NCBI GenBank assembly: GCA_045604775.1
Contig: JAZUOQ010000147.1
Coordinates: forward strand, 1-29,585
From: Eubacteriales bacterium
Lineage (GTDB): Bacteria; Bacillota; Clostridia; Oscillospirales; QAKW01
Reading direction: 5' to 3'
DNA length: 29,585 bases
The translations under genes and the position numbers were made by a program. Below are positions 855 through 3,034 of this stretch, piece after piece (the stretch's first letter is position 1; every line of letters starts with the position of its first letter). The notes beneath the pieces are model-generated. The model was not told where the DNA came from and searched no databases. It saw only the letters and a list, made by a program, of their open reading frames with translations.

Positions 855-2549
855 ATGAAAAATGAAATAATTAAAATAATATCACTAATAACAATTGCTT
901 GTACTATCATTTCAACAACAGGCTGTGCATTAAAAGCCAATGCTTCAGATCTTATGGAAGGAATAACCGCTAAAGAAGTTGATAGCATTAAAAATTTATC
1001 TGAACGCACAGAAATGACAGATTTTGCTGTAAATATTTTTAAACAAATTGCGCAAGATGGCAAAAATACGCTTATTTCTCCCCTATCTATCATAAGTGCA
1101 TTAGCAATGACGATGAATGGCGCGGACGGTGAAACACTCAACCAGATGGAAAGTTTGTTTGGTTTGACAAAAGATGAACTTAACTCATACATTTACACTT
1201 ATTTGACAAAGCTTGCACAGGGAGATAAATACAAACTTAGTCTGGCAAATTCTATTTGGTTCAGAAACGATTTCAATGCGGAAAAACATTTTTTACAGAC
1301 TAATGCAGACTATTACAGTGCAGATGTTTATAAAACAGAATTCAATAATTTGGCATCTAAAAATATTAACAGCTGGGTAAAAAGCGCCACAGACGGTATG
1401 ATAGATAATATTATCAGCGATTTAAATGAAGATGCCGTTATGTATCTTATAAACGCGCTTGCTTTTGATGCTGAGTGGGAGGCCATATACAGTGAAACTC
1501 AAATAAGAAAAGCTGATTTTACAGCTGAAAATTCAGCAAAACAGAATGTGGATTTTATGTATGGCACAGACGAATTATATCTTGATAGTTATAATGCAAG
1601 TGGATTTATAAAATATTACGCCGATCGCAAATATGCTTTTGCCGCTTTACTTCCTGATGAAGAAATTGATATAAACGACTATATCTCAACACTTACCGGT
1701 GAAAAAATTTCAAAAATAATCAACAACGCTGAAAATGTCACTGTAAACACAGCAATACCAAAATTTAAAACTGAATATTTCGCCGAATTATCAGATACAC
1801 TTCAAGATCTGGGAGTAACCAATGCATTTGATGTAAATATTGCAGATTTTTCAAAACTCGGAACATCAGAATCCGGCAATATTTTTATCAGTAATGTATT
1901 TCACAAAGCATTTATTTCTATTGATGAAAGCGGCACCAAAGCAGGTGCTGCTACAAATGAAGAGTATGTAGCATTAGGCATACCTACAGAATACAAAACT
2001 GTTTATCTTAATAGACCGTTTGTATATATGATTATCGATTGCGAAACCAATACCCCGTTTTTTATCGGATGTATGAAAGATATACTAGGTACTGACGAAA
2101 AAGAAAGTACACAGAATGATGTTGAATTTTCAGCAGAATATATTAGAACAGATAAATTTACTGAGAACACCAAATACCCATACATAGATGTAATACGTAC
2201 AAAATCAGAACTTGATAAATATGTTGACAGTCATAATAAGTACAACGACGAATACTTTAAAAAAAATATACTTTTAATAGCCGTATACGAAGAACCAAGC
2301 GGTTCCATTAGACACACTGTCAAAAAAGTAACAACAAATGAAAAAGGAGAAGCATATGTTGATATAGAGCGTATAACTCCTCAAGAAGTAACAGATGATA
2401 TGGCACTATGGCATATCCTTATTGAGCCGAAGAGCAAAAATAATATTACTGTCGCACGGCTTAATTATGAAAATTTAAGAATAGAAAACTGCTATAAATA
2501 TGCAAATATGTCACTTGAAAAGTTTGCAGGTTGGAATTATGAAAAATAG
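855..2549 (+). CDS. Lipoprotein serpin (I4) with C-terminal PrcB-like domain; frame ends prematurely at a probable frameshift
   Basis: SD GAGGTG at 843-848; lipobox TTGC; serpin motifs NTLISPLSI, ANSIW, YLINALAFDAEW, hinge ESGTKAGAAT, LNRPF. The extension contains EEPSGSIRH...ITPQEVTDDMALWHILIE, which resembles PrcB C-terminal domains. Confidence 0.88.
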   Translation: MKNEIIKIISLITIACTIISTTGCALKANASDLMEGITAKEVDSIKNLSERTEMTDFAVNIFKQIAQDGKNTLISPLSIISALAMTMNGADGETLNQMESLFGLTKDELNSYIYTYLTKLAQGDKYKLSLANSIWFRNDFNAEKHFLQTNADYYSADVYKTEFNNLASKNINSWVKSATDGMIDNIISDLNEDAVMYLINALAFDAEWEAIYSETQIRKADFTAENSAKQNVDFMYGTDELYLDSYNASGFIKYYADRKYAFAALLPDEEIDINDYISTLTGEKISKIINNAENVTVNTAIPKFKTEYFAELSDTLQDLGVTNAFDVNIADFSKLGTSESGNIFISNVFHKAFISIDESGTKAGAATNEEYVALGIPTEYKTVYLNRPFVYMIIDCETNTPFFIGCMKDILGTDEKESTQNDVEFSAEYIRTDKFTENTKYPYIDVIRTKSELDKYVDSHNKYNDEYFKKNILLIAVYEEPSGSIRHTVKKVTTNEKGEAYVDIERITPQEVTDDMALWHILIEPKSKNNITVARLNYENLRIENCYKYANMSLEKFAGWNYEK

Positions 2550-3034
2550 AGTACGACAACGATACTTTTGGTATAAGATTCTGGACTGAGGGTGAGACCG
2601 AGGGTAAAATAGCACTTACATGGCAGAATTTTTTGGGGCTTTGCGGAACAGGCCTTGAAACTTTTCCTACTGTTATTGCAGGAAAAGACGCAACGAAATA
2701 TGTTTACGACAATAAAGAACTGTGGGATTTTATAATTTTTAACGATATGCCGGGATGCTATACTGTTTATAATGAGGGTGCAAGTGTATGGTGGGACGAA
2801 TACGGTGAAGAAGCTATGTCAATACTTTCAACCGCCGAACTTGCTAAAGATATTTTAACTTATGATGATGCACTTAGAAAAATCAACGGTCAATTATCTG
2901 ACGATTATAAAAATTGCGAGTTTATAAATACAAATTTTGATATAGACAGTGGTATATGGACATTCACTTTTATTTCTGAAAACACAAATCGATTATCAGT
3001 TAAAATTGACCAAAGCAAAAATATAATCGAATAA
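2543..3034 (+). pseudogene. Frameshifted C-terminal continuation of the serpin gene (unknown domain plus PepSY-like domain)
   Basis: The frame of ORF 2633..3034 is open from 2543 (KIEYDNDTFGIRFWTEGETEGKIALTWQNFLGLCGTG), so it starts inside the A5 run just before the serpin TAG. The TTG at 2633 has no convincing SD. Confidence 0.7.

Follow-up and report, generated by a model that had tools for sequence, protein, structure and literature searches.

A serpin lipoprotein gene of a draft Eubacteriales genome split by a one-base frameshift, probably through a common truncating mutation or an assembly error

The window analysed here, i.e. the whole stretch of 29,585 nt, carries on its forward strand a gene whose product is predicted to be a lipoprotein made of an inhibitory-type serpin followed by two uncharacterised extracytoplasmic domains, referred to below as X and Y. 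Its reading frame is interrupted within domain Y. The features of the locus are the following:

855 to 2549, forward strand: truncated ORF, the called protein P0002 of 564 aa, which runs from the lipoprotein signal through the serpin and domain X into the first 25 residues of domain Y and is ended by TAG
855 to 926, forward strand: putative signal peptide with a lipobox-like ...STTG-C (Cys24), predicted from the translation; the homologue P0138 has FSGC at the aligned place
1014 to 2072, forward strand: serpin domain (PF00079; Pfam E 1.3e-89), with the hinge GTKAGAAT and the end LNRPF
2073 to 2471, forward strand: domain X, uncharacterised, with the motifs EEPSGSIRH...DDMALWHI and no Pfam match
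2472 to 2546, forward strand: start of domain Y in the serpin frame, about 25 residues (NLRIENCYKYANMSLEKFAGWNYEK), corresponding to strands E151-185 of the AlphaFold2 model of a homologue
2528 to 2531, forward strand: AGGT, a Shine-Dalgarno (SD)-like element, a 4-nt match of no demonstrable significance
2542 to 2546, forward strand: A5 run, whose ancestral state would be A6 (GAA AAA ATA, coding for E K I) judging from the gapless junction
2547 to 2549, forward strand: premature TAG of the serpin frame, read in the sequence
2543 to 3034, forward strand: remainder of domain Y, read in the -1 frame over 163 codons and closed by TAA, with the family-invariant CGTGL motif and a PepSY-like C-terminal end
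2633 to 3034, forward strand: ORF of 133 aa with a TTG start, the gene-caller product P0122, an artefact of the break

The serpin ORF begins with the ATG at 855, in a stop-to-stop frame that extends from 801, and within 2520-2560 reads GCA GGT TGG AAT TAT GAA AAA TAG, the last three codons occupying 2541-2549. The -1 frame is closed by a TGA at 2540-2542, then stays open from 2543 to the TAA at 3032-3034 and reads KIEYDNDTFGIRFW... The TGA of the Y frame on one side and the TAG of the serpin frame on the other leave 2543-2546 as the only stretch where both frames are open, and the frame switch is confined to these four positions. Adding one A to the A5 run joins both frames into a fused reading of 726 aa, built by script (...NYEKIEYDN...), with NYEKIEYDNDTFGIR as its junction peptide. 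The sequence thus confirms the description given by the first-pass annotation of a one-base frameshift at GAA AAA TAG, with a -1 frame open from 2543 and both ORFs fused by one extra A, and the AGGT that it had reported is present. The first ATG, GTG or TTG of the -1 frame after 2543 is the TTG at 2633, none occurring in 2543-2632, and the downstream ORF lacks a start of its own, as in frameshift-disrupted genes. A promoter and terminator scan revealed nothing specific at the junction.

The gene belongs to the serpin family PF00079, the model being matched over nearly its full length (positions 3-366 of 370) by residues 72-424 of the translation P0001, with 301 bits for a gathering cut-off of 27. 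The protein resembles inhibitory serpins of gut Clostridia annotated as “serpin family protein” (P0010 and P0091) by its PF00079 domain, at 45-57% identity, its lipoprotein or secreted context and its inhibitory-type hinge, but unlike them it bears X and Y as two additional uncharacterised C-terminal domains. Domain X is the natural C-terminal domain of serpin-X proteins of 563-575 aa. The label “PrcB” initially proposed for this middle domain finds no support in Pfam, the PrcB_C model giving no match at E ≤ 10 for X, L002 or P0003 and none at E ≤ 0.01 in 43 family members. More generally, no Pfam family name was found for X or Y in searches with X, L002, P0003 and the 43 family members, neither domain had a match among PDB sequences and a search of the ESM Atlas gave no name. 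The X-Y region of P0138 (residues 405-751) was modelled by AlphaFold2 from a 43-sequence alignment with a mean pLDDT of 92. A fold search of this X-Y model in the PDB returned no match at E ≤ 0.001; a weak PepSY-like fold match (2gu3, YpmB, probability 0.84) would fit the C-terminal alpha/beta part of Y.

Domain Y (2472-3034 of the window; P0138:560-751; alignment A2) is about 190 aa long, with the invariant CGTGL and conserved Trp residues. A search among 1.84 billion representatives retrieved 497 proteins, i.e. about 500 representatives of a family that Pfam lacks and that matches no solved structure significantly. The domain follows serpins or domain X in some proteins, forms the C-terminus of BlaR1/M56 sensors in others, and was also encountered beside Big_14 or DUF3221 and with Ig-like domains.

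Comparison with homologues strongly supports the view that the serpin ORF and the -1-frame ORF derive from one ancestral gene for a serpin-X-Y surface lipoprotein, in agreement with the earlier suggestion that they belong together, which is borne out by their colinear homology to single-ORF proteins across the site. The fused reading of 726 aa aligns with P0138, a single-ORF serpin-X-Y protein of 751 aa, from residue 8 to the very end with 40% identity, and the alignment has no gap at the junction (GWNYEKIEYD--NDTFGIRFWT vs DWEYELIEYDEERDLFGIRFCP; YEKIEYD faces YELIEYD, within DWEYELIEYD of P0138). This colinearity of both ORFs with one uninterrupted homologue, together with a gapless junction, is what would be expected of a gene disrupted by a frameshift. 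P0138 is the only protein found to join a serpin to the X-Y pair; single-ORF serpin-Y proteins are represented by L007 (587 aa) and P0186 (522 aa). The closest database proteins to the serpin ORF are serpin-X proteins of 563-575 aa (45-49% identity) which end right after X, whereas the protein of the window extends 25 residues past this end (NLRIENCYKYANMSLEKFAGWNYEK). Moreover, every Y-domain match in 49 genomes of the family lies in an uninterrupted frame. In the related genera these frames of 303-415 aa encode lipoproteins of the signal-X-Y type in which the X and Y matches abut colinearly, and the X-Y lipoproteins of relatives align straight across the break site. Among the 150 Y matches listed of the 497, nearly all start at query residues 2-13, upstream of TTG 2633, and the others begin within query residues 1-21, bar one exception matching a local stretch and P0122, the window's own call. 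Among these same 150, Y is never N-terminal, except in P0122 and in one probably partial protein.

The P0138 gene (L011, 1932-5256) is immediately preceded by an ECF-type sigma factor gene and an overlapping 171-aa ORF, possibly an anti-sigma factor. Genes for SpoIID and an M23 peptidase are found upstream of it, and in the window an M23 peptidase gene likewise directly precedes the serpin.

The simplest ancestral state would be GAA AAA ATA, i.e. an A6 run from which one A was lost; inserting two bases (A3 to A5) is another way to account for the frame, at the cost of a one-residue gap. That there is one gene with one missing A, mutation and error being taken together, is in our opinion very probable. 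Since every relative found keeps the frame, the outcome is either a simple truncation or an error, as the first-pass annotation had itself reasoned for such a case; of the three options it had left open, error and truncation are retained from this comparison of orthologues and slippage is not.

A genuine and recent one-base deletion, in the organism or in its population, is the explanation that we favour, with modest confidence. One A would have been lost from the A6 run (GAA AAA ATA becoming GAA AAA TAG..., 2542-2546), shifting the frame inside domain Y. Ribosomes would halt at the TAG at 2547-2549 and release a serpin-X lipoprotein of 564 aa that carries a stub of 25 residues from Y, and the other 163 codons of Y would receive no translation beyond background slippage and would not yet have decayed. 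The break corresponds to residue 181 of the P0138:405-751 model. This residue belongs to strand E177-185, in the beta-rich part of Y, and not to a linker, and the truncated protein would retain only the first few strands of this domain according to this model. The truncated product mimics the common natural serpin-X architecture and probably still inhibits proteases, since this form is the commonest architecture of the group.

Several observations speak for a deletion in the DNA itself. The codons flanking the site are clean and conserved residues are kept, Y retaining 24 of the 31 columns conserved at ≥ 80%. The reading frame is kept through about 24 A/T runs of 7-8 bases in ORFs of the contig, including an A8 run at 2259-2266 of the serpin gene itself, which makes a platform error dependent on homopolymer length unlikely. 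The earlier remark that A7-A8 runs remain in frame elsewhere accordingly holds, for A7-A8 or T7 runs in other ORFs of the window as well as for this A8. Six congeners (L027-L032) lack the gene (855-3034) at their syntenic RF1-S1 locus, and serpins are present in only 5 of the 12 genomes of the genus; given this distribution the gene is accessory, of a kind that tolerates inactivating mutations. In these six relatives the RF1-S1 synteny is kept, with no serpin, Y or M23 gene beside it.

The closest homologues reach 48% identity for serpin-X and 42% for Y, a distance which makes a dN/dS or allele comparison impossible. An exact-pattern scan of JGI metagenome contigs for the A5 or the A6 allele found neither, and look-ups of sequencing runs with 1.5 kb and 341 nt of sequence listed no runs. 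An intrinsic hexamer-based scan of the whole genome for frameshifts placed the serpin site among the two strongest of 1268 ORF pairs; the same scan missed a frameshift in polC (see below), which points to its limited sensitivity.

The locus has the main traits of bacterial genes truncated, whether pseudogenised or deprived of a domain, by single-base indels in short homopolymers: adjacent ORFs in different frames that are colinear with single-ORF homologues, a break in a mononucleotide run and a downstream part devoid of a start codon or ribosome binding site. It differs from typical cases in that its upstream product corresponds to a natural and widespread serpin-X, with the loss of a domain and not a full inactivation, and in that its downstream part is undecayed.

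An assembly or sequencing error, by which the draft would have dropped one A from a serpin-X-Y gene of 726 aa that is intact, with A6, in the organism itself, is a realistic possibility that we nevertheless regard as less than probable. The genome concerned (G000) is a draft assembly totalling 1.47 Mb over 244 contigs, estimated to be 83% complete. Its error rate was evaluated by running tblastn against G000 with 345 coding-like ORFs that came from 558 kb of another genome of the genus (about 75% protein identity): the 200 orthologue-like matches, covering 68,679 aligned residues, contained one frameshift, in a polC-like gene of contig C181. A first version of this reference-based scan had given 11 “frameshift” pairs, all of which except polC were gene boundaries or antisense shadows, and a stricter version left this single case. 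The polC-like gene, which encodes 1422 aa in the same-genus genome G009, is split at about 4456-4502 of C181 by an extra A in CCAAAAAGCG, within the conserved KYMFPKAHAAAY motif. This A4 to A5 indel in the conserved FPKAHAAAY motif is followed by a cluster of changes to G (KARGAADVSSAM) and, in an essential gene, most likely reflects a local error of sequencing or assembly. In addition, within the first ~330 nt of the reverse complement of contig C95 (minus strand), a segment of about 100 nt encoding YWDVLRLWFEIKAGLVKAKEYGEYESIGIDTWG occurs twice, in two frames; this duplication stands at the contig end of a large ORF (about 460 codons) and resembles an assembly duplication artefact.

The reference-based check thus reveals local sequence errors in the draft genome, and the assembly is not error-free, yet indels are rare in it, at about 1 per 200 kb. 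An error at the serpin site would be in keeping with the demonstrable A-run indel in the essential polC and the contig-end duplication artefact, with the fragmentation of the draft (N50 of 7.6 kb), with the seamless fusion of the two ORFs and with the absence of decay in Y, whose 163 perfectly preserved downstream codons fit an error equally well. Conversely, the serpin site is clean, with no nearby odd substitutions like those of the polC patch, the longer A7-A8 runs of the same contig and gene are all in frame, and one frameshift per ~206 kb of conserved genes leaves only ~0.01 expected in a gene of 2.2 kb. We thus tend to place the deletion in the DNA and not in the assembly.

The first-pass annotation had also proposed that the locus yields a short and a long isoform by -1 slippage. 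A programmed or usefully leaky -1 shift, in which a P-site or A-site tRNA-Lys slips on A_AAA beside UAG to give a short serpin-X and a long serpin-X-Y, appears very unlikely, and we give slightly less credence still to its particular form in which A_AAA_UAG is used biologically without heptamer or RNA structure, the P-site tRNA-Lys slipping as the stop codon waits and one mRNA giving mostly serpin-X plus a minor fraction of serpin-X-Y. The arguments for it are that A_AAA is a recognised Z_ZZN tetramer with a stop codon next to it, that a 4-nt AGGU lies 11 nt upstream of the shift site and that the downstream frame is intact; in addition, frameshifting that “corrects” indels is described in general terms in a review (PMC5009743). 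The site, however, is U_GAA_AAA and provides only the weak A_AAA tetramer and no X_XXZ_ZZN heptamer, since GAA in the P site cannot re-pair on UGA. Without a stimulator, the frequency of shifting on Z_ZZN tetramers in E. coli is 0.147%, close to the background of 0.112%, and even with a strong pseudoknot none of the six active tetramers is weaker than A_AA.A (PMC4066793). No stimulatory hairpin or pseudoknot at 5-9 nt downstream was detected, with folding z-scores of -0.58 for 2547-2640 and -1.34 for 2500-2700. Moreover, none of the proposed signals is distinctive, because they recur genome-wide: A_AAA followed by a stop ends 95 of the 1062 confident ORFs, an SD-like 4-mer is found 7-16 nt upstream in 12 of these 95 gene ends, and 7469 in-frame A_AAA tetramers were counted. 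At the homologous site the DNA of P0138 reads GAG CTT ATA GAA, with neither an A-run nor a slippery site, all the Y-bearing homologues found are single ORFs, none being split, and the shift point falls inside a beta-strand of the AlphaFold2 model and not at a domain boundary. The locus shares with programmed -1 sites of the dnaX and IS3-IS911 types an A-rich shift site decoded by tRNA-Lys and an SD-like tetramer upstream, but departs from them by lacking the heptamer, the hairpin or pseudoknot and conservation among homologues, and by a shift located mid-strand within a domain. The recoding or isoform reading is not supported.

A contingency switch, in which slipped-strand mispairing in the A-run would toggle Y on and off in the population, is highly improbable as well. 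The indel does affect a homopolymer in a surface-protein gene, but A5 or A6 is far shorter than the tracts of contingency loci, which usually have 7-8 bases or more, and neither transcriptional slippage nor phase variation is to be expected to any appreciable extent on a run as short as A5; the A8 run of the serpin gene is in frame and P0138 has no tract at the homologous position. The least credible reading, which we practically discard, is that of two independent genes, a complete serpin-X followed by a small Y gene starting at TTG 2633, as gene callers do give the 133-aa ORF (P0122) and serpin-X proteins of ~565 aa do exist, whereas the known ones end 25 residues earlier, Y homology starts 25-29 codons upstream of this TTG and runs into the serpin frame, no SD precedes it, a stand-alone Y would be deprived of a signal peptide and of its first strands, and the colinear alignment contradicts it.

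The break in the serpin gene looks like a feature of an already known kind, an ordinary truncating mutation or an assembly error. The locus can serve as a negative example, in which an A-run beside a stop codon with an intact downstream frame does not amount to evidence for recoding. The frameshift itself matters little and is mostly an annotation issue, the 564-aa and 133-aa calls representing one frameshifted serpin-X-Y gene to be merged and flagged. The by-products of the analysis are more useful: X and Y are conserved extracytoplasmic domains without a Pfam family, which as a pair have no significant match to a solved structure but a confident predicted structure, and Y is a candidate new extracytoplasmic domain family.
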